Assembly: GCA_964565925.1 (NCBI GenBank)
Contig: CAZMGV010000005.1
Span: forward strand, 64,100 to 128,099
Direction of reading: 5' to 3'
Length of the DNA stretch: 64,000 bases
Origin: an uncultured bacterium
GTDB taxonomy: Bacteria > JAGRBM01 > JAHCIT01
Of the stretch, positions 11,264 through 32,881 are shown in pieces. The first letter of the stretch is position 1. The number at the start of each line of letters is the position of its first letter. The translations under genes and the position numbers were made by a program. Under the pieces are notes generated by a model. That model worked only from the letters and a program-made list of their open reading frames with translations. It did no database searches and was not told the origin of the DNA.

Positions 11264-13435
11264 TTGTTGGGGACAGTGCGAGCGCTCGTCGTCACCGGAA
11301 ACATCAGGCTTTCGGCCAAGTTGGCCGAGGTGCTCCAGCCGTTTGCGCCGCAAGTCGACCAGTGTGCCGATGGGGAGGCCGCCCTGCTCAGTTTTGAGCG
11401 TAATGACTATCAACTGCTGGTAACCGACCTGGCGCTTCCGAAGGTTGCGGGGCCCGAATTTATCCGCCGAATCCGGAGTCTGGACCGGGGGAAATCGGTC
11501 CCGATACTGTTCATGAGCCCGCCGCTGAAGGACAAAGGCTTGCCGCAACGACTGGCCCGTACCTATTCACTGAGTGCCTATCTTGAAATGCCGTTCCCGT
11601 TTCCGCGGTTTCTCGACGCTGCAAAGAAGGCAGTCGAAACGAATGGCCAGTCCCCTCGACCAGCATCCGGGCAGGTTTCGGCTTCTGTGCAATCAACGTC
11701 ACAGGCGCCTGGCCTGCAGCAGGTCCAGTCGGCCGTAGTCCCGGTAGCCGCGCCTCAACCGTTGCGGCCCGCTTCCGGACCCAGACAGATTTCCTGGGGT
11801 GTCGCGGGACCGGGTGTGCTGCCCAATCTGGAAGAGGTAATGCTACTCGTCCGTAACGAGGGCTTCACCTGCAAGGGCCGCCTGACCGGCGGGGGGAAAA
11901 TCGTTCCGGTCAATTTTCACAAGGGACTTCCGATGGCGGAGTTTACCGGTGCCGGGCATCCGATTCTGGAAGACCTGAACAAGTCCCAGGTGATCACTCC
12001 TCAAGAATTTGAACGCTTGCGAAAGATTTCGCCGCCCGCCGAAGTTGAACGGCTGCTTGTCGGTGCGGGTGTGCTGGCTCCGGGCGATCTCGCCAAACGG
12101 CGTGTGGAAATACTTGGTACGAGGCTTGGCGAGGCGCTCCGCTGGCCGCAGGGCGTTCTGACCGTGGAACCTCAGTCGGCCGATGCCGGACCGACCGAGC
12201 GCCTCTACGGCGAACTCGCTCTGGCCCATGCGGTTGCTCATGACGTGCGGGCGTCTACCAACCCGCTCAAGCTGGGCACGCTGCAGAACCAGCTTAAGAC
12301 AGCCTGGCTGGCACCCGGCAAGGAACTTCCGTATTTCGCGAGGCTTCTGCCACTGGATGCCGACGAGGAGCGGATCGTCGATCAGGTACAACGGCCTGTC
12401 GCCGTGCAGTCGATCGTGCAGAGCGTTCGTGACCCGGATACCGCCTGGAACGTGATCCGCATTCTGCTCGCGCTCCGGCTCGTGACCCGGCACGCGCAGA
12501 TGCCGCATGGCGTGACCGTCGAGTTCCCTCTTTCACTCAGGACCCTTCACAAGCCGAAAACGTCGGCAGAGGCCCGGAAAAATGTCGGCGATGATTCATT
12601 GGAGCTGATTGATATCTCCGGGGATCTTGCCGACGACCTGAACGATATTGTCGGCGACATCCGCCAGAAGGCGGCGCCGGCCGTTCCTGCGGCGGGCGGG
12701 CAGCAGTCGGATCTCCAGAAACTCGAGAACGAGCTGTTCGATGAGCTCGAGAAGGCCAAGAAGCTCAACTATTACGAACTGCTCGGCACCAAGAAAAACG
12801 GCTTCAGCTTTCAGGACGCCAAGAAGCGGTATTTCGAGGTTCAGCGCAAGTTCTCGCCCGACAAGTTCATCATGTCGTCCGGGGATGTCATGGGAAAGGC
12901 GCAGGAACTGCTCGAAAAGCTATCGGCCGCATTTGAGACGCTGTCGGATATCAAGAAGAAGGAGGCCTACGACCAGAAGCTCTCGCAGCAGAAGCTGATG
13001 AGCGGCGAGGGCGCCTCGGGCGGCAAGACGATTCAGGCGGACGTGGCCTACCAGAGCGGGCTTGCCTTGATGGAAGCGGACGAATGGGATTCTGCCATCA
13101 AGCAGTTCGAACTGGCCCGAAAAATACAGCCCGGTATCACGAACCACGAGGTTAACCATGCATGGGCGTTGTATAAAAATCCGAAGAACAAGGGCAATAC
13201 CACCGTTCTGGCCGAGGTGAAGAAAATGTTGAATGCGGCGGTCGTGCGCGATCCCCGGTGCGCCATCGGTTTCACCTATCGTGCGTGGCTACTTGTGGAC
13301 GAGGGCAAGGTCGATATTGCCGCCATGGAGTTCAGCAAGGCACTCCGGATTGATGCGAACCTGAAGCTGGCGCAGCAAGGCCTCCAGAAAGTGGAAGCGA
13401 TCCGCAAGACCCAAAAGAAAGGTCTGTTCGCGTGA
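11264..13435 (+). CDS. Multidomain protein: degenerate receiver-like N-terminal domain, central region of unknown function, J-like domain with a degenerate HPD motif (SPD), and C-terminal TPR repeats
   Basis: The N-terminus RALVVTGN...LLVTDLALPKVAG is receiver-like but lacks the acidic pocket. The J-like segment is KKLNYYELLGTKKNGFSFQDAKKRYFEVQRKFSPDKF. The C-terminal QADVAYQSGLALMEADEWDSAIKQFELARKIQP...AMEFSKALRIDANLKLAQQGL matches TPR. The start is TTG at 11264 or GTG at 11276. The stop overlaps the next gene by 4 bp. Confidence 0.55.
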   Translation: MLGTVRALVVTGNIRLSAKLAEVLQPFAPQVDQCADGEAALLSFERNDYQLLVTDLALPKVAGPEFIRRIRSLDRGKSVPILFMSPPLKDKGLPQRLARTYSLSAYLEMPFPFPRFLDAAKKAVETNGQSPRPASGQVSASVQSTSQAPGLQQVQSAVVPVAAPQPLRPASGPRQISWGVAGPGVLPNLEEVMLLVRNEGFTCKGRLTGGGKIVPVNFHKGLPMAEFTGAGHPILEDLNKSQVITPQEFERLRKISPPAEVERLLVGAGVLAPGDLAKRRVEILGTRLGEALRWPQGVLTVEPQSADAGPTERLYGELALAHAVAHDVRASTNPLKLGTLQNQLKTAWLAPGKELPYFARLLPLDADEERIVDQVQRPVAVQSIVQSVRDPDTAWNVIRILLALRLVTRHAQMPHGVTVEFPLSLRTLHKPKTSAEARKNVGDDSLELIDISGDLADDLNDIVGDIRQKAAPAVPAAGGQQSDLQKLENELFDELEKAKKLNYYELLGTKKNGFSFQDAKKRYFEVQRKFSPDKFIMSSGDVMGKAQELLEKLSAAFETLSDIKKKEAYDQKLSQQKLMSGEGASGGKTIQADVAYQSGLALMEADEWDSAIKQFELARKIQPGITNHEVNHAWALYKNPKNKGNTTVLAEVKKMLNAAVVRDPRCAIGFTYRAWLLVDEGKVDIAAMEFSKALRIDANLKLAQQGLQKVEAIRKTQKKGLFA

Positions 13436-23440: not shown

Positions 23441-24541
23441 CTATTCGTCCTTGAGTTCGAACCGGCCGAGTGCCAGCACCGTCATGACGAGCTGGCGGCG
23501 GTCGAAAGGTTTGGCGAGGAACGCGTCGGCGAACAGGGTACCGGTGACGATCTGGCGGTTCACCTCGGTATCGGAACCGGAGAGGACGAGGATCTTCGTG
23601 TTACTCGTCTTTTCGTGCTCTTTCAGTTTCTGGCACGCCTCAAAGCCGTTCATCTTCGGCATGGCGAGGTCGAGAATAATGAGGTCGGGGCGCTCTTTGA
23701 GCGCCGTGCGGAACCCTTCCTGCCCGTCGTAGGCGTGAATAATCTCCGCCTTCACGTTGGCGAGGGAATGTTTAACCAGCATGTGCATCGGCTCTTCGTC
23801 GTCGATGTGCAGAATCTTTGGCAGTTTGGTGGCCGGATGCTTGTCGGCTTTCTTGAGCGCATCGGTGAAGGCCCGGGCGACGCCCGCTTCGAGGTTGTCA
23901 TCCACCCAGGCGCGCAGACGCGGGGTGAGTTCCACGTCCGAATAGATGATCCGCACGATCGACTTGAAGCTCTGCATCTTGCGCAGGAACTCCATGACGC
24001 CCTCGTGCGGGCGGAAGGTGTCCGATTTTCCCTGCCCGATGGCGTCCAGCATATTGGACACCTGATCGTGCGAGAGACTCTCCAGCTTGCCGAACCGGGC
24101 GCCGAGCCCCAGCGAGTTGGACCACCGGGCGATCAGCGATCCCTTGTGCGACCGTATTTCGCAGGCGACGGGCCGGTCGTCCAGCGCCACGGCGATCTGG
24201 CTGAACAGCTCCGACATCCCCATCTGAAAGCGGTCGAAAAACGCTTCGTAGGGAATATCGACGGTATGCTCGGGGGCTTTCTGGTCCCGGCGGAACTTGA
24301 ATACGCCGCGGCGGAACTGGATCAGGTTGTAGGCGACCTCGCGGCCCTGGTGCTTGCCGCTGGAGGCGTGGACGAGCCGCCCGCCCTCGAAGAAGAATTT
24401 CGCCACCCGGTCGTCATCCCAGACGTCGAGTTGCACGTTCGCCTTCGTCTGGCAGATCGGTTCGACGATCTCGAGAATGGATCCGTCTTCCATCATCCCG
24501 AGCAGTTCGCCCGGGGTCGTGGTCTTGGTCACTACAGCCAT
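23441..24541 (-). CDS. Response regulator with an N-terminal DUF4388 (PATAN-like) domain and a C-terminal receiver domain
   Basis: The C-terminal REC domain is KILHIDDEEPMHMLV...DLIILDLAMPKMNGFEACQKLK...KILVLSGSD...FLAKPFD. The N-terminal ~250 aa resemble DUF4388, which is common in Myxococcota/Planctomycetota regulators. Confidence 0.7.
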   Translation of the reverse strand: MAVVTKTTTPGELLGMMEDGSILEIVEPICQTKANVQLDVWDDDRVAKFFFEGGRLVHASSGKHQGREVAYNLIQFRRGVFKFRRDQKAPEHTVDIPYEAFFDRFQMGMSELFSQIAVALDDRPVACEIRSHKGSLIARWSNSLGLGARFGKLESLSHDQVSNMLDAIGQGKSDTFRPHEGVMEFLRKMQSFKSIVRIIYSDVELTPRLRAWVDDNLEAGVARAFTDALKKADKHPATKLPKILHIDDEEPMHMLVKHSLANVKAEIIHAYDGQEGFRTALKERPDLIILDLAMPKMNGFEACQKLKEHEKTSNTKILVLSGSDTEVNRQIVTGTLFADAFLAKPFDRRQLVMTVLALGRFELKDE

Positions 24542-24701
24542 AGGGTCACCAGTATAGTCCGGTTACGGAAAAGGTGTGCAAATTCGGGGGGTTCGGAAAA
24601 ATCGGATTCCTTTGTAACCTTCCGGGCTCCCGGGACGTGATAGTTACAGAGGCCGCCTTGGCTTGGGTAAGGTGGGGTGGTTGAGGCTAAAGGAGACGGT
24701 C

Positions 24702-26015
24702 ATGGCAGAACAGCAGAAACAGGCGGTTGTGGTGGGAAGCGGGCTCGCGGGGCTCACAGCGGCGAACTATCTCGCCAAAGGCGGCCGCAAAGTCACGGTA
24801 TTCGAGAAATCGTCGCACCCGGGCGGCCGGGCCGTCACCAAAGAACAGGACGGCTTCTATCTGAATCTCGGACCCCACGCCCTTTATTGCCTGGGCGAAG
24901 GCGTAAAGGTTCTGGACGAGTTCGGAGTGCAATTCTCGCGCAAGATCCCATCGGCGGCGGGAGCCGCCGCTGTCCGGGGCGGAAAGCGGTTCAAACTGCC
25001 CGCCAGCCTGACGTCGATCCTGTTCAATCCGATGTATTCCTGGCGGGAGCGGTTCGGATTCCTTATCGCCCTGTCGGCCGTTTCGGCCACGGCGAAACCG
25101 GAGGCGCTGGAGAAGATTTCACTTAAAGACTGGCTGGACGGCCGCAGGGCGTCCGCCGCCGTCAGGCAGTCGGTGGAAGCGCTCTGTCGGGTGGCAACGT
25201 ACAGTAACTCTCCTGAACGAATCAGCGCCGGTTCGGCGATCCGGCAGATGCGGCTCGCCTTCAAGGGTAACGTTTATTACCTCGACCACGGCTGGCAAAC
25301 GATCGTGGGCGGATTGCGCAGTTCGGCCGAGAAAGCTGGTGTGACCTTCGTGACAGGCGAAGAAGTTATTGCCGTTGAGACTGAAGACGGAGCGAGCACC
25401 GGAGTTCATCTGGCAAGCGGCCGGATGGTGCCGGCGACTTCCGTAATCCTCGCCACCGGTCCGGCCGATGCCGCCAAGCTCGTGGACGGCGGAAAGAATG
25501 CAACTCTGAATGGCTGGGCGGCATCGAGCGTGCCGGTGAAGGCGGCCTGCCTCGATCTGGGCCTCGCGTCACTACCGAACCCGGATGTGAAGTTCGCCCT
25601 GGGGATCGATGCATCGCTCTACTATTCGGTCCATTCGGCAACGGGTAAATTCGCACCCGAAGGTGCGGCGATGGTCCATATAGCGAAATATCTGGATCCG
25701 TCCCGTGAATCGGATGCTGCCAGCGACCAGAAGGAGCTGGAAAGCCTGATGGATCTGCTGCAACCCGGTTGGCGGAAGCTGGTGAAAGTGCAGCGCTATC
25801 TGCCGAAGCTTGTTGTCACCCATCGGCTCGTCACGTCCGACGATGGCGGCGTGACTGGCAGGCCAGGCCCGGCAGTTCCCGGAATTGAAAGCCTGTTTGT
25901 CGCGGGCGACTGGGCGGGCACGGAAGCGATGATCGCAGATGCCGCATTCGCCAGCGGCCGCCAGGCTGCGGTTCTGGCACTGGGCAGTGTCGTGGTATCG
26001 CGAAAAGCAGCCTGA
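24702..26015 (+). CDS. FAD/NAD(P)-binding oxidoreductase (amine-oxidase / phytoene-desaturase-like)
   Basis: Rossmann dinucleotide motif VVVGSGLAGLTAANYLAKGGRKVTVFEKSSHPGGR. The C-terminal FVAGDW segment is typical of the family. The start is taken at MAEQQKQ. Confidence 0.7.
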   Translation: MAEQQKQAVVVGSGLAGLTAANYLAKGGRKVTVFEKSSHPGGRAVTKEQDGFYLNLGPHALYCLGEGVKVLDEFGVQFSRKIPSAAGAAAVRGGKRFKLPASLTSILFNPMYSWRERFGFLIALSAVSATAKPEALEKISLKDWLDGRRASAAVRQSVEALCRVATYSNSPERISAGSAIRQMRLAFKGNVYYLDHGWQTIVGGLRSSAEKAGVTFVTGEEVIAVETEDGASTGVHLASGRMVPATSVILATGPADAAKLVDGGKNATLNGWAASSVPVKAACLDLGLASLPNPDVKFALGIDASLYYSVHSATGKFAPEGAAMVHIAKYLDPSRESDAASDQKELESLMDLLQPGWRKLVKVQRYLPKLVVTHRLVTSDDGGVTGRPGPAVPGIESLFVAGDWAGTEAMIADAAFASGRQAAVLALGSVVVSRKAA

Positions 26016-26953
26016 GCCTTGCCGTCGGTAGCTACCGGAACGTTCAGAGCAGGTAGGTCGGACCACAGGCAGGTCCACAGAGCCGACGGTTTCACAGGAT
26101 CGTCGTCATCGGTCACCAGCCACAAGCGGGTTCCCGGGCCCTCTGACTCTGCCCATAACCCTTCGACCTTGAGCGGCGGCGATAGCCAGTGCAGTGCGGT
26201 GACGGCGTGGCCATCGAGAATGCCGATGGCGGAACCGCTCACGGCACCGTCCTCATAGGTGCTGGCTGAATTTTCCGCGACGGCGGTAAAGAGCAGACGT
26301 CCTCCCGGCAGGGCGAATCCGTCGGTGAACGACAGCGGGCCTTTATCCTCCGGCAGCTTCACCGCTTCCGACTGGACGAGGCAGTTTCCGGTCACTCGTC
26401 CGCTCGCAGCCTCCGATCTGAACCGGTTCAGGTCCAGATGCAGCAGGCCGTTTTGGCCGGCCCGGCCGTTACCGCGCTGAAACAGGATCAACCGGTCGTC
26501 ATGGACGGCCGCCCCTTCGATATTGAGTTCGGGGAACTGCCGGGCTGCCGAGATATAGAGTTCTGCCAGCTCCACCTGATGGATTCCGGTTGGTTCGCCG
26601 CTGGCATCGAGCCGGACCAGCGCTGCGCGGGTGCGGCTCGGGGTGGAGCCGGACGGGATAGCCAGCAGCTCCGAATTGCCGTTCGGCAAGGGCAGGAGTG
26701 CGAGCGCTTCCAGGTCGGGCTTGCGGCGTTTGCGGTCCCGCTTGTCCAGCGGCAGTTCGCCCTGAAGGATACGGAACCCCCGGCCCGGAGCGGAGCCTTC
26801 ACGGGGAAACACCCCCAGATGCAGCTCGTCGTCGGCCACGACGTATATGTGCGACCGGGTCATGGCGAGTCCGCTCGCGGCCGAAATAAACGGACGCCGC
26901 CCGGCCGACATCGGCTGGGTCAGATCGAGCAGACGAAGGCGGACAGGGTTCAT
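25796..26953 (-). CDS. Hypothetical protein (possible beta-propeller). It is third in the adenylate-cyclase operon. The 3-prime boundary is uncertain.
   Basis: The start overlaps the cyclase stop (ATGA at 26950-26953). The N-terminal two-thirds look protein-like (SHIYVVADDELHLGVF, LLAIPSGST, AAVHDDRLILFQRGNG). The last ~70 aa are low-complexity and overlap the convergent oxidoreductase by ~220 bp, so the true stop may be earlier or there may be a frameshift. Confidence 0.35.
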   Translation of the reverse strand: MNPVRLRLLDLTQPMSAGRRPFISAASGLAMTRSHIYVVADDELHLGVFPREGSAPGRGFRILQGELPLDKRDRKRRKPDLEALALLPLPNGNSELLAIPSGSTPSRTRAALVRLDASGEPTGIHQVELAELYISAARQFPELNIEGAAVHDDRLILFQRGNGRAGQNGLLHLDLNRFRSEAASGRVTGNCLVQSEAVKLPEDKGPLSFTDGFALPGGRLLFTAVAENSASTYEDGAVSGSAIGILDGHAVTALHWLSPPLKVEGLWAESEGPGTRLWLVTDDDDPVKPSALWTCLWSDLPALNVPVATDGKAQAAFRDTTTLPSARTAAWRPLANAASAIIASVPAQSPATNRLSIPGTAGPGLPVTPPSSDVTSRWVTTSFGR

Positions 26954-28650
26954 GACGCGGGCAGGGTGACGCCTTCGATAAACGCCACAACCTCTCTGGG
27001 TATTGAGGTGAACCGGATTTCGTGAAGACCACTGCTATTTCCGTCGGATACCGGCATGACCTTGGCGTAGATGTCTAGCCGGTCCAGATGACTGCTGACT
27101 TCATGCAGGTTCAGCTTGAGGTTGCTAAGTGTTTCCATTTTTGAGTCTGAACGTACCGTCACAGCCTGCGCGGAGATGGCAATGATCTCAAGATGAAACC
27201 GGTCGTCGTTAACCGTCTTCCCGTCTACCAGCGAGGCCACAAAGCGTAGCGGACGGACTGGCGGACGTGGTGTGGTGGTGTGACGGTTCAGGACACAGCT
27301 GAATTCGCCGCCCACGCCGCCGATCTCATAGATGGCGAGCGGGTGGCTGGCTCCTTTGGGCATGATTTCCATCCGGCCATCGATTCTGATCAGTCCCTTA
27401 GATTCATCAATTACAGACTGGGAAGCCAGAATCTGCCCGCCCACCGTATAGGATTCGATCCGGCTTGCCATATTCACGCCGCTACCGACGACTGTATATT
27501 TGCTCCGGCGGCTGGATCCGATATTGCCTACCACGACTTCTGCGTCGTTTATTCCAATACCCATCTCCAATGCGGGAAGCCCGTTCGCCTCGTTCCGCTG
27601 GTTCACAGCCGCCATGGCATTCTGCATTTCAACGGCGCAGGCGGTGGCCCTGAGCGCCCGGTCGGGCATCTCATGGGGCGCTCCGAAGATGACGAGCAGG
27701 GCGTCACCGATGATTTCGTTTACAGTTCCGTGATGCCTGAAGACGACTTCCACCATAATTTCATAATAGTCATTCAGCATACGGACGAAGGTTTCGGCGG
27801 GAATCCGTTCCGCAAGTGCGGTGAATCCGCGCAGGTCAGTCATCAGGATGCTCACCCGCCGGCGATGCCCGCCCATTTCAAGGGCGGCCGGGTTTTCGAT
27901 CAGCGCGTGCATGACTTCGGGAGCCAGATACCGTCCGAACATCTTCTTCAGGAATCCGGAGAGTTCGGTTACCTGTTCCTCGCGTTCCTTCCAGCGGGCG
28001 AAAATATAGGAACTCACCAGGATAATGGCAGCGGAGAGTGTCACCGGGACCAGGAAGATGACCACCGTGCCGGCTGGTGGAATGAGAAGGTGTCCGTCCT
28101 CAAATGGTGCACGCCGCAGCCAGGGCGCATAGGGAATCCATCCGGCAATCTGCGCCACGGTGGTGCCTGTCAGGATGATCAGGGCAGTGAGGCCGCTCAG
28201 GAGCACCGGTCGTAAGCCGAACATGAGGAGGCTGATTGAGAGGCCTCCCAGGGCGACGACCCAGACAGGTGTAGTGATCGTGCCGGTGAAATAGATGACG
28301 AGCCCCGTATGAACCGCCGTCCCTTGTAGAAACAGGTGGAGCACTAACGGGTTTTCCGGGTCCCGCCTGCGAAGCAGAAGCCCGGCCACAATGACCGTCG
28401 CCATGAAAATACTGGTGATCGCATAAAACGGTTTAAGAATCTGCTCAGCGAATTCCCAGTTTACGAGGTCGCTGAAATAGGTGGCTTCGCTTCCCTTCCA
28501 CACGATGAGCCAGCCGGCCACAACCCACGGAAATGCGATGCTTGAGCAGAGTACGCACCGGTCCACCAGCGGCCAGTCAAGCGGGTTAAAGAGCCATGAT
28601 TTGCGGCCCGCTGCCATGCCCGGCTGAACTGGATGGATGGAAGCCGCCAC
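26950..28650 (-). CDS. Membrane-anchored class III adenylate/guanylate cyclase (6 TM + CHD catalytic domain + C-terminal domain of unknown function)
   Basis: ~6 N-terminal TM helices. The cyclase homology domain is VSILMTDLRGFTALAE...GTVNEIIGDALLVIFGAP...VGIGINDAEVVVGNIGSSRRSKYTVVGSGVNMASRIES. A ~150-aa C-terminal extension follows. Confidence 0.8.
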   Translation of the reverse strand: MAASIHPVQPGMAAGRKSWLFNPLDWPLVDRCVLCSSIAFPWVVAGWLIVWKGSEATYFSDLVNWEFAEQILKPFYAITSIFMATVIVAGLLLRRRDPENPLVLHLFLQGTAVHTGLVIYFTGTITTPVWVVALGGLSISLLMFGLRPVLLSGLTALIILTGTTVAQIAGWIPYAPWLRRAPFEDGHLLIPPAGTVVIFLVPVTLSAAIILVSSYIFARWKEREEQVTELSGFLKKMFGRYLAPEVMHALIENPAALEMGGHRRRVSILMTDLRGFTALAERIPAETFVRMLNDYYEIMVEVVFRHHGTVNEIIGDALLVIFGAPHEMPDRALRATACAVEMQNAMAAVNQRNEANGLPALEMGIGINDAEVVVGNIGSSRRSKYTVVGSGVNMASRIESYTVGGQILASQSVIDESKGLIRIDGRMEIMPKGASHPLAIYEIGGVGGEFSCVLNRHTTTPRPPVRPLRFVASLVDGKTVNDDRFHLEIIAISAQAVTVRSDSKMETLSNLKLNLHEVSSHLDRLDIYAKVMPVSDGNSSGLHEIRFTSIPREVVAFIEGVTLPAS

Positions 28651-28661
28651 CGTTATCCTGC

Positions 28662-30455
28662 TTACGGTTTCGCGATCTGGACGTATTCGGGGTGCTTCTT
28701 GAGAATCTCGGCAAACACCGGAGCGAACACCGGCATGGCGACCTCGCTGGCGGATTTTTCCGGAACCACCATCTTGCAGACGTCGATCACGATCCCGATC
28801 GCCCTCAGAAACATCAGATTGTCCTGCGGCGTCTTGAAGGTTTTCACCTGCTTCAGCGCCTCGTCCATCGCGGAGAAGAGCTGTTTCATGTCTCCCTCCT
28901 TGCGGATGTCGTGATCAAAAATGGCACTTCGCATGGCCGGATCGGCAAACATCTTGCCGGCAAACCCTTCCAGGAACTCCCGGTCCGGTTCCCCGACGGC
29001 GCCTTTTTCGATCAGCCCGTCCACATAGAGACGCGGATTGTTGAAGAAGCCGCCGAAGATCTCTTTCATCAGGCCGTTACGCACGTTATCGGGGAGTTTC
29101 TTCACCATCCCGAAGTCGAGCATGGCGAGCCCGCCGGCCGGCGTGCAGAACACGTTGGCCGGGTGCGGATCGGCGTGAAAGAACCCGCCGAAGAATGCCT
29201 GCTGAAGGAACGACCGCATGTAGGTTTGCATCAGTTTCACGCGGTCCACGTTCCAGGCCTTGAGCTGGTCGAGGTTGTCGACGTTCGTTCCCTCGATAAA
29301 CTCCAGCGTCAGTACGCGGCGTGTGGTGTATCGCCAGTGGACCTTGGGGACTTTGACCCCGAACGGCGCCAGTTCCTTTTCCATCTGTTCGGTGGCGCGG
29401 CCTTCACGGGTCATATCCAGTTCATGCCGGAGCGGTTCTTCGTATTCCTTGTAAATCTGCATGAGGTCCACGCGTTTGACGATCTTGGAGAACCCCTTGA
29501 TGAGCAGACGGGTCAGCCAGAGATCGATGGCGACGCTCTGTTCGAGTCCCGGGTGCTGCACCTTCACGACGACCTTTTCGCCGGTGGGGAGTTTGGCCAC
29601 ATGAACCTGCCCCATGGAGGCGGCGGCGATCGGGGATTTCTCGAAGTCGGCGAACAGCTCCAGCGGCCCCACGCCGAACTCGCTCTGGATGAGTCCAGCC
29701 ACCAGCGAGTAGTCGGTCGCGGGTACGCGGTCCCGCATTGCCTTGAACTCCTCGATGTACTCTGGAGGGAGCAGGTGCATTTGCATGCTCGCCACCTGAC
29801 CGGCCTTGATATTGGCGCCCTTGAGACGGAATGCCGTCTCCTTGAACCGGATCGCGTTCTCCCGGTGGATGCGCGACATCTCCTCGGGCGTCTGCGGCCA
29901 GCGGAGCAGTGTCCGGCGAACCCATACCCAGAGGTAGGACAGCAGCAGCCGAGTCTGCATCCAGGCGAGGCTCGACAGGTGCTTGATCGCTCCCGTCCGG
30001 TCCTGAATCTCCAGCGCGCGGGCGAACTTGCGGTCAGACTCCGAGAGGCGGTTGGAGAGCGCCTGCAGGAAGGACCAGAGCACCTTCCGTCCGATGACCG
30101 GTTCCCGTTCGATCAGCTCCAGAAACCGGTCGCGGGGAATAAACAGGCACTGGGTCTCTCCTTCCGCACGGACCGAGGCTGAAGTGGGCCGGTCCGTCAC
30201 CAGGCTCATCTCGCCGAAATGGTCGCCTGCGAAGAGCTCGTTGATCCGCTGTTGTTTTTCCCCGCGAACGCTCTTGAAGACGTGAACCTTCCCGGTGTTC
30301 ACGATAAACAGTCCGGGACCGTGGATCCCTTCGTCGATAATCTTTTCATTGTCCCTGTAACGCCGCTCCTCGCAGACCGAGGCGACCAGCCGGGTTTCTT
30401 CGGATGTTAACGATTTGAAAACGGGCAGCCCACGCATGGCTTCGGCACGGTCCAT
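28662..30455 (-). CDS. Fusion of a cyclic-nucleotide-binding (cNMP/CAP-effector) domain and a UbiB/ABC1-family atypical protein kinase
   Basis: The N-terminal cNMP-binding domain has the phosphate-binding cassette FGEMSLVTDRPTSASVRA. The ABC1/UbiB kinase core follows: AAASMGQVHVAKLPTGEKVVVKVQHPG...HADPHPANVF...AMLDFGMV. An 11-bp gap separates it from the cyclase gene downstream on the same strand. Confidence 0.75.
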   Translation of the reverse strand: MDRAEAMRGLPVFKSLTSEETRLVASVCEERRYRDNEKIIDEGIHGPGLFIVNTGKVHVFKSVRGEKQQRINELFAGDHFGEMSLVTDRPTSASVRAEGETQCLFIPRDRFLELIEREPVIGRKVLWSFLQALSNRLSESDRKFARALEIQDRTGAIKHLSSLAWMQTRLLLSYLWVWVRRTLLRWPQTPEEMSRIHRENAIRFKETAFRLKGANIKAGQVASMQMHLLPPEYIEEFKAMRDRVPATDYSLVAGLIQSEFGVGPLELFADFEKSPIAAASMGQVHVAKLPTGEKVVVKVQHPGLEQSVAIDLWLTRLLIKGFSKIVKRVDLMQIYKEYEEPLRHELDMTREGRATEQMEKELAPFGVKVPKVHWRYTTRRVLTLEFIEGTNVDNLDQLKAWNVDRVKLMQTYMRSFLQQAFFGGFFHADPHPANVFCTPAGGLAMLDFGMVKKLPDNVRNGLMKEIFGGFFNNPRLYVDGLIEKGAVGEPDREFLEGFAGKMFADPAMRSAIFDHDIRKEGDMKQLFSAMDEALKQVKTFKTPQDNLMFLRAIGIVIDVCKMVVPEKSASEVAMPVFAPVFAEILKKHPEYVQIAKP

Positions 30456-30655
30456 GAAATCCCCTTTTGATAACCCCTGACTCTGATTTCAGGGTATTTA
30501 TAACATGTAGAGTCCGGTTCCGGTAACCGCATGCGGGAGGTCGCCTACGAACCGGACCGGAAGGAAACAGTGGGACAGCGAAAAATCCTCTTGTCGGTAT
30601 CCGGGACCTACTGTAGTCTCCACTGACACCGGAGTCATTTTCCCGGATTTCCCCG

Positions 30656-32881
30656 ATGCAGGCCGTTCAGGAGAGCCCCATGACAGAAACGAAAACCACC
30701 TTTTGCCGTATCTGCGAGGCCGCCTGCGGCCTTGAAGTGACCGTCGAGGACAACCGGATCGTAAAGGTCGAGCCGGACCGGAATCACGTGGTGACGCAGG
30801 GCTATGTCTGCATCAAGGGGATCAAGTTCGCCGATGTGCACCATTCACCGGACCGCATCCGCCACCCGATGAAGCGGGTGGGCGACGAGTGGGTGCGGAT
30901 CACCTGGGACCGGGCGTTCAGCGAGATTGGCGCCAAGGTGAAGGAGCTTCGTAAGGCCCACGGAGCCAACTCTATTGGCATGTACATGGGAAATCCGGCG
31001 GCTTTCAGCGGAACGCACCCGGTGTTCAGCCAGGCGTTCCTGACCGGCATCGGGAGCAAGAACTTCTTCTCTGCCGGGTCGCAGGACTGCAACAACAAGT
31101 TCGCCGTGACCAAGCGGATGTTCGGGCATCCGACCATCCAGCCGATACCCGATGTCGATCACACGGAATGCATCATTATCGTGGGCTCGAACCCGGCCAT
31201 CTCGCAGATGAGCTTCGTGAGCATGCCGAGGCCCATTGAGCGTCTCAAGGAAGTGGAAAAGCGGGGCGGCAAAGTCATCTGGATCAATCCGCGCCGGACC
31301 GAATCGACGCGCGGCCTGGGCGAACACCTGTTCGTGCGGCCGGATACGGACGTCTACTTCCTGCTGTCGTTCCTGAACGAACTGATCGCCAGCGGCGGCG
31401 TGAAGCAGGAGACCGTCCGCAAGTACATGAAAAACTGGGAGGGCGTCGAAAAACTCGCCCGCCAGTGGACGCCTGAACATACGGAAAGGATTACCGGCAT
31501 CGCGCCAGACCGGCTCCGGGAGATCGTTGCCCACTACCGCAAGGCCAACGGAGCCGCACTTTACTGCTCGACCGGCGTCAATATGGCGAAGAACTCGACG
31601 CTAGCCTTCTGGATCCTGAACGTCATCAATGCGGTTTCAGGCAATCTCGACAGACGCGGCGGCATGCTCGTCTCGCGCGGCCTGATCAACAACGCCCCGG
31701 CGTTTGCCAAGCGGGCCGGTGTCGGCATGCGGAAGACCCGGTCTCGGATCGGCGACTTCGAGAGCGTCATGGACAGCTATCCCGCCGGCGTGCTGCCGGA
31801 CGAGATTCTCACCCCCGGCCAGGGCCAGATCCGGGCGCTGTTCGTGTCGGCGGGCAATCCGCTGCTCTCCTGTCCCAACGGCGCGCGCATGGAAGAAGCG
31901 CTCAAGAAGCTCGAACTGATCGTCAGCGTGGACATGTTCCGCAATGAGACCGGCAACCTCGCCCACTACATCCTTCCAGGGCTCTCGTTCTTCGAGCGTC
32001 CGGACATCCCCATGCCGACGATGGGGTTCCAGCCGATCCCCTACATTCAGTGGACCGACGCAATGGTGGCGCCCGACGGCGAACAGCGCGACGAATGGTG
32101 GATCTATACGGAACTCGCGCGCGCCTGCGACGTGGACATTTTCGGTGCAAAGCCGGCCCGGTATTTCTTCGGCCTGAACCGGCTGATCTCTAAGCTTCCG
32201 CTGATCGGGAAGCGCATTTCGTTCCGGCCCGAGTGGGCGCTCGAGATGATGACCCTTGCGTCACGGCAGGTGACTCCTGCGAAACTCAAGAAGCATCCTC
32301 ATGGCCTGCTGCTGCGGGAAAATCCCGAAAAAGATTTCCTCGGCAAGCGCGTTCTGACAGACGACGGCAAGGTGGATCTGGCGCCGCCCGAATTCACTGA
32401 CGAGGCGAGAAACCTGGTCAGGGGTTATGCCGAAGAACTGGCCGCCCGCGACAGTCTGAAACTGATCTCCAAGCGCGAGCGCTTTACGCACAACTCATGG
32501 ATGCACAACCTGGAGGAGTTCGTAAAGGGCGAGCGAAAGACCAACTACCTCTACATGCATCCCGAAGACGCCCGTCGCGCTGAACTGGAAGACGGCGATC
32601 TGGCCGATATCACGTCGGCCACGGCCACCGTGTCGGCGCCGGTCAAAATCACCGACGAGATGATGCCCCGGGTCGTGGCGCTGCCGCACGGATGGGGCCA
32701 CGGCAAAGCGGATGGCCTCAAGGTGGCCAGTCAGACGACCGGAGCGAACGCCAACCTGCTGGCGGCCGACGGCCCCGAGGCGCTCGAACGGTTCGCCGGC
32801 ATGGCCCACCTGAACGGCATCCAGGTGGAGGTCCGGCGAGCCCCCGACAAGCCGGCGGAGAAGTTCCGGGAAGCCGTCTAA
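30656..32881 (+). CDS. Molybdopterin-dependent oxidoreductase, MopB superfamily (FdhF/YdeP/BisC-like catalytic subunit); no partner subunit is adjacent
   Basis: The N-terminal [4Fe-4S] motif is CRICEAACGL...C. The MopB domains run throughout, ending in a C-terminal molybdopterin-dinucleotide-binding region (DADRRAELEDGDLADI...VALPHGWGH). The start may be at MTETK (about 30680). Confidence 0.75.
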   Translation: MQAVQESPMTETKTTFCRICEAACGLEVTVEDNRIVKVEPDRNHVVTQGYVCIKGIKFADVHHSPDRIRHPMKRVGDEWVRITWDRAFSEIGAKVKELRKAHGANSIGMYMGNPAAFSGTHPVFSQAFLTGIGSKNFFSAGSQDCNNKFAVTKRMFGHPTIQPIPDVDHTECIIIVGSNPAISQMSFVSMPRPIERLKEVEKRGGKVIWINPRRTESTRGLGEHLFVRPDTDVYFLLSFLNELIASGGVKQETVRKYMKNWEGVEKLARQWTPEHTERITGIAPDRLREIVAHYRKANGAALYCSTGVNMAKNSTLAFWILNVINAVSGNLDRRGGMLVSRGLINNAPAFAKRAGVGMRKTRSRIGDFESVMDSYPAGVLPDEILTPGQGQIRALFVSAGNPLLSCPNGARMEEALKKLELIVSVDMFRNETGNLAHYILPGLSFFERPDIPMPTMGFQPIPYIQWTDAMVAPDGEQRDEWWIYTELARACDVDIFGAKPARYFFGLNRLISKLPLIGKRISFRPEWALEMMTLASRQVTPAKLKKHPHGLLLRENPEKDFLGKRVLTDDGKVDLAPPEFTDEARNLVRGYAEELAARDSLKLISKRERFTHNSWMHNLEEFVKGERKTNYLYMHPEDARRAELEDGDLADITSATATVSAPVKITDEMMPRVVALPHGWGHGKADGLKVASQTTGANANLLAADGPEALERFAGMAHLNGIQVEVRRAPDKPAEKFREAV

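Follow-up and report, generated by a model that had tools for sequence, protein, structure and literature searches.

A CNB-fold ABC1 kinase lacking the phosphate-binding arginine is encoded next to a predicted guanylate-type cyclase in an uncultured bacterium

The UbiB/ABC1 proteins are an ancient, widely distributed family that includes COQ8A and COQ8B, which are involved in human disease, the ABC1K proteins of plastids and bacterial UbiB. Both their activity and their regulators are debated, and to our knowledge none of them has been described with a natural allosteric sensor domain. We also know of very few bacterial effectors of cyclic GMP (cGMP), namely CgrA of R. centenum and XC_0249 of Xanthomonas. 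The Xanthomonas guanylate cyclase XC_0250 and the adjacent XC_0249, a cyclic-nucleotide-binding (CNB) domain joined to a GGDEF domain, make up a cGMP pathway (PMC3770947). This is the closest characterised system to the gene pair analysed here, a CNB-ABC1 fusion gene followed by a gene for a six-transmembrane (6TM) class III cyclase, found in a stretch of 64,000 nucleotides from an uncultured bacterium (assembly GCA_964565925.1, contig CAZMGV010000005.1, positions 64,100 to 128,099), which we call the window. Both are chromosomal modules in which a class III cyclase gene adjoins a gene for an N-terminal CNB domain fused to an enzymatic output, control by cGMP through the CNB domain being a prediction in our case. 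However, the output is an ABC1/UbiB atypical kinase rather than a GGDEF domain, and the CNB domain lacks the arginine of the phosphate-binding cassette (PBC). The cyclase is a 6TM Cya2-like protein with intact Asn and Arg residues, whereas XC_0250 is soluble, carries tetratricopeptide (TPR) repeats and has substituted Asn and Arg. Unlike the Xanthomonas pair, the window system is known from sequence only and its pairing is kept in a minority of relatives.

The initial annotation of the window had described three minus-strand genes, encoding a 597-aa protein in which a canonical cyclic-nucleotide-binding domain is fused to a complete UbiB/ABC1 kinase core, a 6TM class III adenylyl cyclase 11 bp further on and an overlapping, beta-propeller-like hypothetical protein. 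Our analysis recovered this layout, with three head-to-tail minus-strand open reading frames (ORFs) for the CNB-ABC1 fusion, the cyclase and a DUF6929 beta-propeller (Table 1), and the Pfam search returned the cNMP_binding (PF00027), ABC1 (PF03109) and Guanylate_cyc (PF00211) families. Both domains of the fusion scored above their Pfam thresholds: cNMP_binding at residues 30-117 with 76 bits (cutoff 27.5; E 2.3e-21) and ABC1 at residues 240-467 with 232 bits (cutoff 22.9; E 7e-69). The architecture is real, rare and uncharacterised; a search of the literature found no paper on a CNB-ABC1/UbiB fusion, and its members carry generic database annotations ('AarF/UbiB family protein' or 'cyclic nucleotide-binding domain-containing protein').

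The AlphaFold2 (AF2) model of the fusion, built on an alignment of homologues, had a mean predicted local distance difference test score (pLDDT) of 84 and a predicted TM-score (pTM) of 0.68. It showed the strands of a CNB beta-barrel at residues 29-107 with a PBC helix at residues 82-85, and Foldseek matched this domain to CNB-B of PKG with a TMt of about 0.8; the hidden Markov model (HMM) match, the barrel and the helix together place it in the CNB fold. One continuous helix of about 65 residues (119-183) joins the barrel to the UbiB N-terminal extension, a modelled geometry that would be suited to relaying structural changes in the sensor to the KxGQ region.

The PBC runs from F80 to A97 and its cassette, FGEMSLVTDRPTSASVRA, is the one that the initial annotation had quoted as canonical. 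Alignment with the solved domains of PKG and PKA placed d-r-P-T-S-A-S of the fusion over d-e-P-R-S-A-T, which puts Thr91 on the phosphate-binding Arg. This arginine, R209 in PKA RIa and R82 in CAP, binds the cyclic phosphate. The listed homologues include 52 fused proteins; across these, the corresponding column held Thr (26), Ala (18), Ile (5), Val (2) and Ser (1), and neither Arg nor Lys in any of them. Glu82, which contacts the ribose 2'-OH and with Gly81 forms the Gly-Glu pair of the cassette, was invariant in the 52 proteins, as was Ser84. The cassette is thus not canonical: the glutamate and the HMM match to the fold held up, but the arginine did not. The invariance of Glu82 and Ser84 indicates that the pocket is under selection. 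However, as the arginine is missing across the family, binding of cyclic nucleotides cannot be assumed, and the actual ligand of the domain is uncertain. Two other arginines were considered as stand-ins and rejected. R89 of the 'DRP' motif lies two residues off the register of the PBC arginine and its position is basic in only 28 of the 52 proteins; the position of R96 is commonly occupied by Lys or Arg in canonical CNB domains that keep the PBC arginine.

Divergent cassettes have been described in two other families. In the PKA regulatory subunit (PKA-R) of Trypanosoma, where the PBC arginines are replaced by Thr318 and Asn442 and Ala202 by Glu, nucleosides are bound and cyclic AMP (cAMP) binding is lost, and putting back the arginines alone regained just a weak response to a cyclic nucleotide, cIMP (PMC10959531). 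The POPDC proteins, whose PBC is divergent, do bind cAMP (PMC6726836). Like the trypanosomatid PKA-R, the window protein links a CNB fold to a kinase, has a Thr in place of the PBC arginine (T318 of site A) and keeps the Gly-Glu ribose contact. Unlike it, the fusion has an invariant Ser at the position of Ala202 instead of the Glu that clashes with the phosphate, and its kinase is of the ABC1 type and fused in cis, whereas that of the trypanosomatids is an AGC kinase. A Ser at the position of Ala202 also occurs in cyclic-nucleotide-gated (CNG) channels that bind cyclic nucleotides.

The kinase core with its KxGQ N-terminal extension occupies residues ~190-590. All of the hallmarks of the ABC1 family were found besides the HMM match, and comparison of 32 fused homologues showed that they are invariant: KxGQ (K217 and Q220), the Ala-rich loop AAAS at 277-280 (A277, A279 and S280), the Lys K298, D429 and N434 of HADPHPAN, and D447 of DFG. 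These motifs line up with those of human COQ8B in the PDB alignment, and Foldseek matched the kinase part of the model to COQ8A (TMt 0.75) and to the mycobacterial proteins MSMEG_1954 and Rv3197, the TMt values to COQ8A and MSMEG_1954 ranging from 0.64 to 0.75. The ABC1 core is therefore complete and its catalytic Lys and Asp residues are in place, as had been claimed, and the assignment to the ABC1 family stands. The assignment to UbiB itself does not. UbiB was the best NCBIfam match of the kinase domain, but the scores fell far short of the equivalog cutoffs (233.7 against 487.55 bits for TIGR01982 and 173.3 against 667 bits for NF003404), and the MABP-1 cutoff was likewise missed. The UbiB of bacteria such as E. 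coli has C-terminal transmembrane (TM) helices; the hydropathy scan of the fusion revealed no TM-grade segment apart from a helix at residues 546-565, which we take to be buried in the C-lobe of the kinase. Because the equivalog cutoffs failed and there is no TM-grade segment, we file the protein as a putatively soluble ABC1-family paralogue with an unassigned substrate and not as a ubiquinone UbiB proper. It shares with COQ8A/ADCK3, UbiB and MABP-1 (Rv3197/MSMEG_1954) the PF03109 fold, KxGQ, the Ala-rich loop and the catalytic Lys, Asp, Asn and DFG; it differs from them in its fused ligand-sensor domain, which only the window protein has, in having neither a mitochondrial nor a TM anchor, and in its scores below the UbiB and MABP-1 cutoffs.

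The catalytic domain of the cyclase (Guanylate_cyc at residues 265-433 of the 566-aa ORF, E 4e-25 in Pfam) comes after about six hydrophobic segments lying between residues 31 and 219 (hydropathy) and is followed by a C-terminal extension of about 115 aa. The protein contains the cyclase transducer element (CTE) motif FGRYL, the metal-binding Asp residues in LMTD and IGDA, and the Asn and Arg in VNMASR; the four residues of a competent class III catalytic site, two Asp, Asn and Arg, all align with those of Cya2. Pfam searches at E values up to 10 gave no match for either the membrane domain or the C-terminal extension, and a PilZ-like C-terminal domain, suspected from the sequence, was dropped after the same search. 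The best solved relatives of the catalytic domain were Synechocystis Cya2 (2W01; E 1.6e-57, 50% identity) and a phytochrome-Cya2 chimera.

The alignment with Cya2 (tvnEiigd over tidEfmgd) placed the Glu of NEIIGD on E488, at the purine-specifying position four residues before the second metal Asp, where an adenylate cyclase would have Lys; the second specificity residue is Thr. A Glu with a small or polar partner is the residue pattern of guanylate cyclases. Cya2 is itself a guanylate cyclase that the E488K substitution by itself turns into an adenylate cyclase (PMC5995499). Structural work on RhGC argues that the contact of the Glu with N1 and N2 of guanine carries most of the specificity for GTP and that the second residue is variable, and it notes 'Asp (or Thr)' as the partner residue in adenylate cyclases (PMC7384201). 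The window cyclase is therefore most likely of the guanylate type, with cGMP as its predicted product, so that of the initial description the 6TM class III part is retained and the adenylyl part is not. The resemblance to Cya2 extends to the same Glu, the intact Asp, Asn and Arg, the CTE motif FGRY and the presence of a C-terminal extension. However, where the window protein has a compact 6TM N-terminus with no Pfam match, Cya2 carries an extracellular CHASE2 sensor together with a TM segment (PMC5995499), and the second specificity residue is Gly in Cya2 and Thr in the window protein.

Comparison with homologues assigned the window cyclase, on sequence, to a large and uncharacterised family of Cya2-like 6TM proteins found mostly in 'Deltaproteobacteria', Thermodesulfobacteriota and Desulfobacula; its members measure about 580 aa, with 42-52% identity along 97% of their length. 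The Glu was present in 118 of 120 listed members, the window protein included, and its partner was Ala, Thr, Ser or Gly. Glu-type enzymes are a minority among the class III cyclases of bacteria. The family also has a strongly conserved N-terminal NPLDWP motif (window 28000-28617), and its C-terminal extension, about 110 aa long (window 26950-27300), contains conserved positions as well; Cya2 needs its own, uncharacterised C-terminal extension for activity (PMC5995499). In the contexts of another member (L173-L175, 'Deltaproteobacteria', homologue P0127), the 6TM Glu-type cyclase gene directly follows genes for a dCache-HAMP methyl-accepting chemotaxis protein (MCP) and a receiver (REC)-histidine kinase, a context that suggests a different signalling partnership for the family.

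We then compared the surroundings of fused and non-fused relatives in a sample of 22 distinct fused loci, absence being judged within the sequence available for each locus. A class III cyclase gene adjoined the fusion gene in four of the 22, and in two of these four it was on the same strand and tightly spaced; we count the four as three independent arrangements. A Bdellovibrionota locus (L006), whose fusion protein is 70% identical to that of the window, has the same gene order and strand and a cyclase 52% identical over its full length. In a Schekmanbacteria locus (L014), a multi-TM cyclase gene is convergent with the fusion gene at 125 bp, and at L017 a gene for a cyclase with an N-terminal extracytoplasmic-looking region is convergent at a distance of 1.5 kb. 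All four adjoining cyclases are of the Glu type at the position of Cya2 E488 despite their three different architectures. By contrast, a phmmer search of all ORFs of the 170 sources detected no cyclase in 145 non-fused ABC1 loci (1.70 Mb), and because of this the enrichment beside fused genes is hard to attribute to chance. Even if cyclase genes were assumed to occur as often as once in every 200 kb, a deliberately high figure, 22 loci should yield about 0.6 adjacencies by chance, and the probability of three independent ones would be about 0.02 before the uniformity of the Glu type is counted. We read the linkage as real but facultative, which is no proof that the CNB domain binds the product of the cyclase. 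Since the pairing is absent from 18 of the 22 fused loci, the window pair is not an obligate two-gene module. Of the dedicated synthase-kinase module of the initial annotation, what we see is a tight coupling in the window and at L006 and, in relatives, an enrichment (4/22 against 0/145) that is far from universal.

The fusion itself belongs to a rare family spread over about six phyla. Both Pfam domains were present in about 55 of the best 120 matches in a collection of 5.8 billion proteins. In a collection with one genome per species (185,579 species), 491 relatives were confirmed, and about 14 of the 80 loci listed were fused, under the labels Bdellovibrionota, 'Deltaproteobacteria', Schekmanbacteria, Myxococcales, Solibacteraceae and Gemmatimonadales; a metagenome scan added at least one further fused locus, L090, among the matches listed. 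By length the fusions form two groups, one of about 600 aa and one of about 760 aa, the longer proteins having an additional conserved region at the C-terminus. In a distance tree of the kinase part, the 760-aa fused group was basal and non-fused proteins of the Polyangiales type were nested among fused ones, and because of this topology the CNB domain is judged to be ancestral to this ABC1 subfamily and to have been lost several times.

Other observations concern the same family. A 'Deltaproteobacteria' metagenome-assembled genome (L018, 10001-10352) has a broken CNB remnant in two separate pieces upstream of the ABC1 core, and the called protein (P0028, 517 aa) has no PF00027 match, which illustrates how the sensor domain can decay. 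The 760-aa subfamily (P0027, P0029, P0032, P0037, P0041 and others; L003 and L019-L021) occurs in Gemmatimonadota and Acidobacteriota; its conserved C-terminal extension of about 160 aa has no Pfam annotation, and no cyclase was found nearby in the loci examined. At L003, the fusion gene comes after three tandem Ser/Thr-kinase plus Tricorn/PD40 genes. Redox or detoxification genes adjoin CNB-ABC1 genes in unrelated lineages, with AhpC-AhpF and glutathione S-transferase (GST) at L170, GST at L176, flavin monooxygenase (FMO) at L004/L005 and rhodanese at L006, and redox genes also flank the window cluster (24663-26015 and 30656-32881). By analogy, these recurring neighbours may hint at a role related to oxidative stress or quinones, such as has been proposed for the plant ABC1K proteins.

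The reading that we favour, tentatively and with confidence short of even, is that of a chromosomal signalling pair in which a cGMP-type cyclase feeds an unusual CNB-gated ABC1 ATPase/kinase. From the domains, motifs, gene arrangement, family-wide residue pattern and enrichment of Glu-type cyclases beside fused genes, we infer a product, a mode of ligand binding, a direction of regulation and a target as follows. The membrane cyclase would sense a signal through its membrane domain and convert GTP to cGMP. The cyclic nucleotide would be held by Gly81-Glu82 at the ribose 2'-OH, by backbone amides and by the hydroxyls of Ser84, Thr91 and Ser92 in place of the arginine. Its binding would shift the C-helix and the long linker and so reposition the KxGQ lid, which in COQ8A covers the active-site cleft, and this would switch an ATPase or kinase activity toward a lipid or a prenylquinone-related target. 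Several findings weigh against this reading. The arginine that neutralises the cyclic phosphate is replaced by Thr91 and absent from 52 of 52 fused proteins, and the same change to Thr or Asn goes with the loss of cAMP binding in Trypanosoma PKA-R (PMC10959531). No cyclase was found at 18 of the 22 fused loci, among them the locus of the closest relative (86% identity) and the loci of proteins closely related to those of L014 and L017, and the L014 and L017 cyclase genes, being convergent, are not co-transcribed with the fusion gene. The 6TM cyclase family is far more widespread than the CNB-ABC1 fusion, and no CNB protein was encoded near the one other member checked (P0127, in its MCP/histidine kinase context). 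Finally, the Glu by itself carries the assignment of the product, because Thr is also a residue of class IIIb adenylate cyclases.

The missing arginine next to an invariant ribose-contacting Glu would also fit a CNB fold that is not a receptor for cyclic nucleotides, the arginine having been lost in the ancestor of the family, and that would instead bind an uncharged ribose-containing ligand such as a nucleoside or another small ligand, or act as a ligand-free regulatory or dimerisation module beside an opportunistically placed cyclase whose signal goes to other targets. We hold this to be the main competitor, only slightly less probable than the favoured reading. The trypanosomal PKA-R, nucleoside-binding and blind to cAMP after its Arg to Thr318/Asn442 changes (PMC10959531), is its precedent; the 18 loci with no nearby cyclase, the repeated loss of the CNB domain with its degradation at L018, and the occurrence of most of the cyclase family apart from the fusion agree with it. 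It accounts less well for three independent juxtapositions with Glu-type cyclases against none in 1.7 Mb of non-fused loci and for the operon-like pairs of the window and L006. The trypanosomatid switch, moreover, also needs Ala202 to be a Glu, where the fusion has Ser, and POPDC proteins bind cAMP with no classical PBC. A version along the lines of the initial annotation, a cAMP-making cyclase and a cAMP-gated UbiB kinase regulating ubiquinone biosynthesis, appears improbable. The kinase domain does have UbiB as its best NCBIfam match, but it missed the equivalog cutoffs by wide margins (234 against 488 and 173 against 667 bits), has no TM helices, unlike bacterial UbiB, and is fused to a CNB domain with no PBC arginine. 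The cyclase half of this version could appeal to the imperfection of two-residue predictions of substrate and to the Thr, which is the second specificity residue of class IIIb adenylate cyclases (PMC7384201); however, a Glu occupies the position of the Lys here and in 118 of 120 listed family members, and among solved structures the closest is that of Cya2, a guanylate cyclase that becomes an adenylate cyclase when this Glu is changed to Lys. We consider a Pycsar-like anti-phage system, with a cyclic (pyrimidine) nucleotide made upon infection and a CNB-ABC1 effector of abortive infection, to be very unlikely. In PADLOC, PycC models recognised the cyclase (best E 1.2e-20) and the CNB part of PycTIR recognised the CNB domain (E 9e-9), and the two-gene logic of a cyclase and a CNB effector is shared, but these similarities are at the level of domains and Cya2 is far closer (E 1.6e-57). 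The effector has no TIR or TM domain and an ABC1 output; the cyclase architecture and the predicted purine product also differ, the enzyme coming from a large family conserved over its full length, with signalling genes around the one other member checked. Most fused loci lack the pairing, and the examined genes around the window pair are of biosynthesis and central metabolism, with no signs of a defence island or mobile element. Membership in Pycsar was therefore rejected on architecture and context.

The coordinates of the locus are given in Table 1. The TAA stop codon of the fusion gene is followed by the 11-nt spacer and the GTG of the cyclase ORF, and the AGGA within the spacer is a plausible Shine-Dalgarno (SD) sequence. 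NCBI and Logan gene calls start the cyclase at an ATG 33 nt inside the GTG ORF, and the two genes are tightly packed with either start. A consensus scan between them gave no promoter-like or terminator-like site. The TGA of the cyclase gene and the ATG of the third gene share bases as ATGA, which agrees with the overlap first described. The divergent region upstream of the fusion gene, which presumably holds its promoter, contains TTATAAATA, an inverted repeat (CCCTGA-N8-TCAGGG, 30475-30494) and the SD sequence GGGGA. The repeat sits between the AT-rich TTATAAATA box and the SD sequence of the fusion gene and could be an operator or a hairpin of the 5' untranslated region (5'-UTR).

Table 1. 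Features of the CNB-ABC1/cyclase locus, in window coordinates
Feature	Position	Strand	Remarks
CNB-ABC1 fusion gene	28662..30455	-	597 aa; Pfam, NCBIfam, PDB alignments, AF2 + Foldseek, hydropathy
Spacer between fusion and cyclase genes, 11 nt (gcAGGAtaacg)	28651..28661	-	SD-like AGGA 5 nt before GTG
6TM class III nucleotidyl cyclase gene	26950..28650	-	566 aa from GTG; 555 aa from ATG at 28617
DUF6929/DUF6910 beta-propeller gene	25796..26953	-	Pfam, AF2; start overlaps cyclase stop
PBC start (Phe80) to end of KxGQ-to-catalytic-Lys region	29184..30218	-	residue numbering
PBC codons	~30165-30218; Thr91 ~30183-30185	-	residue numbering
Divergent intergenic region upstream of fusion gene, 200 bp	30456..30655	.	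sequence features only

The neighbours are ordinary chromosomal genes, among them a divergent molybdopterin oxidoreductase gene, a convergent gene resembling those of FAD amine oxidases and phytoene desaturases, a DUF4388-REC response regulator gene and genes for anthranilate synthase, a 2-oxoacid dehydrogenase complex and an acyl-CoA synthetase. No second CNB or cyclase gene was found anywhere in the window. Two response regulators of unusual architecture are encoded there, a 723-aa REC and DnaJ J-domain protein (11264-13435, +) and the DUF4388-REC protein just downstream of the cluster (23441-24541, -).

The third gene, probably co-transcribed with the cyclase gene, matched DUF6929 and DUF6910 in Pfam (E 3e-66 and 4e-56). 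A PDB search with the protein sequence gave no match and the fold came from AF2 and Foldseek: the model had pLDDT values above 90 for residues 1-300 and was matched to beta-propellers (such as WD40, NHL, PAL and glutaminyl cyclase) with modest TM-scores, in line with the beta-propeller-like character first noted. Homologues of about 300-310 aa are widespread (Rhizobium, Burkholderiales, Terriglobales and Bdellovibrionota). DUF6929 was found in none of the other fused loci examined, L006 having a short-chain dehydrogenase gene after the cyclase in its place, and we treat the gene as a lineage-specific passenger. At its C-terminus the ORF is extended by about 80 aa (residues 308-385; window 25796-26030, -). 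This tail is disordered in the AF2 model and has no counterpart in about 120 homologues, all of about 300-310 aa; on the DNA it overlaps, in antisense, the last 220 bp of the convergent FAD amine-oxidase-like gene (24663-26015, +). The exact 385-aa product is recorded in Logan only and not in NCBI, and the tail looks like the result of a lost stop codon or of read-through.

The interest of the locus lies in the open question of how UbiB-family proteins are regulated and in the arginine-less PBC, and it is tempered by the patchy linkage to cyclases. An ABC1 family that was ancestrally fused to a sensor offers a natural on/off handle on what the ABC1 domain does, and the replacement of the PBC arginine throughout the family is instructive in either case, be it as arginine-independent binding of cyclic nucleotides or as a switch of ligand class comparable to that of the trypanosomatid PKA. 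A kinase-type effector, together with a large and unstudied family of 6TM Glu-type cyclases, would broaden bacterial cGMP signalling. It is conceivable, although we regard it as rather doubtful, that CNB-ABC1 proteins are a new, arginine-free class of bacterial cGMP receptors and the first UbiB/ABC1 proteins to be set by a second messenger. If so, they would tie signals sensed at the membrane to lipid or quinone homeostasis and would give the field a UbiB protein that can be switched by a ligand.

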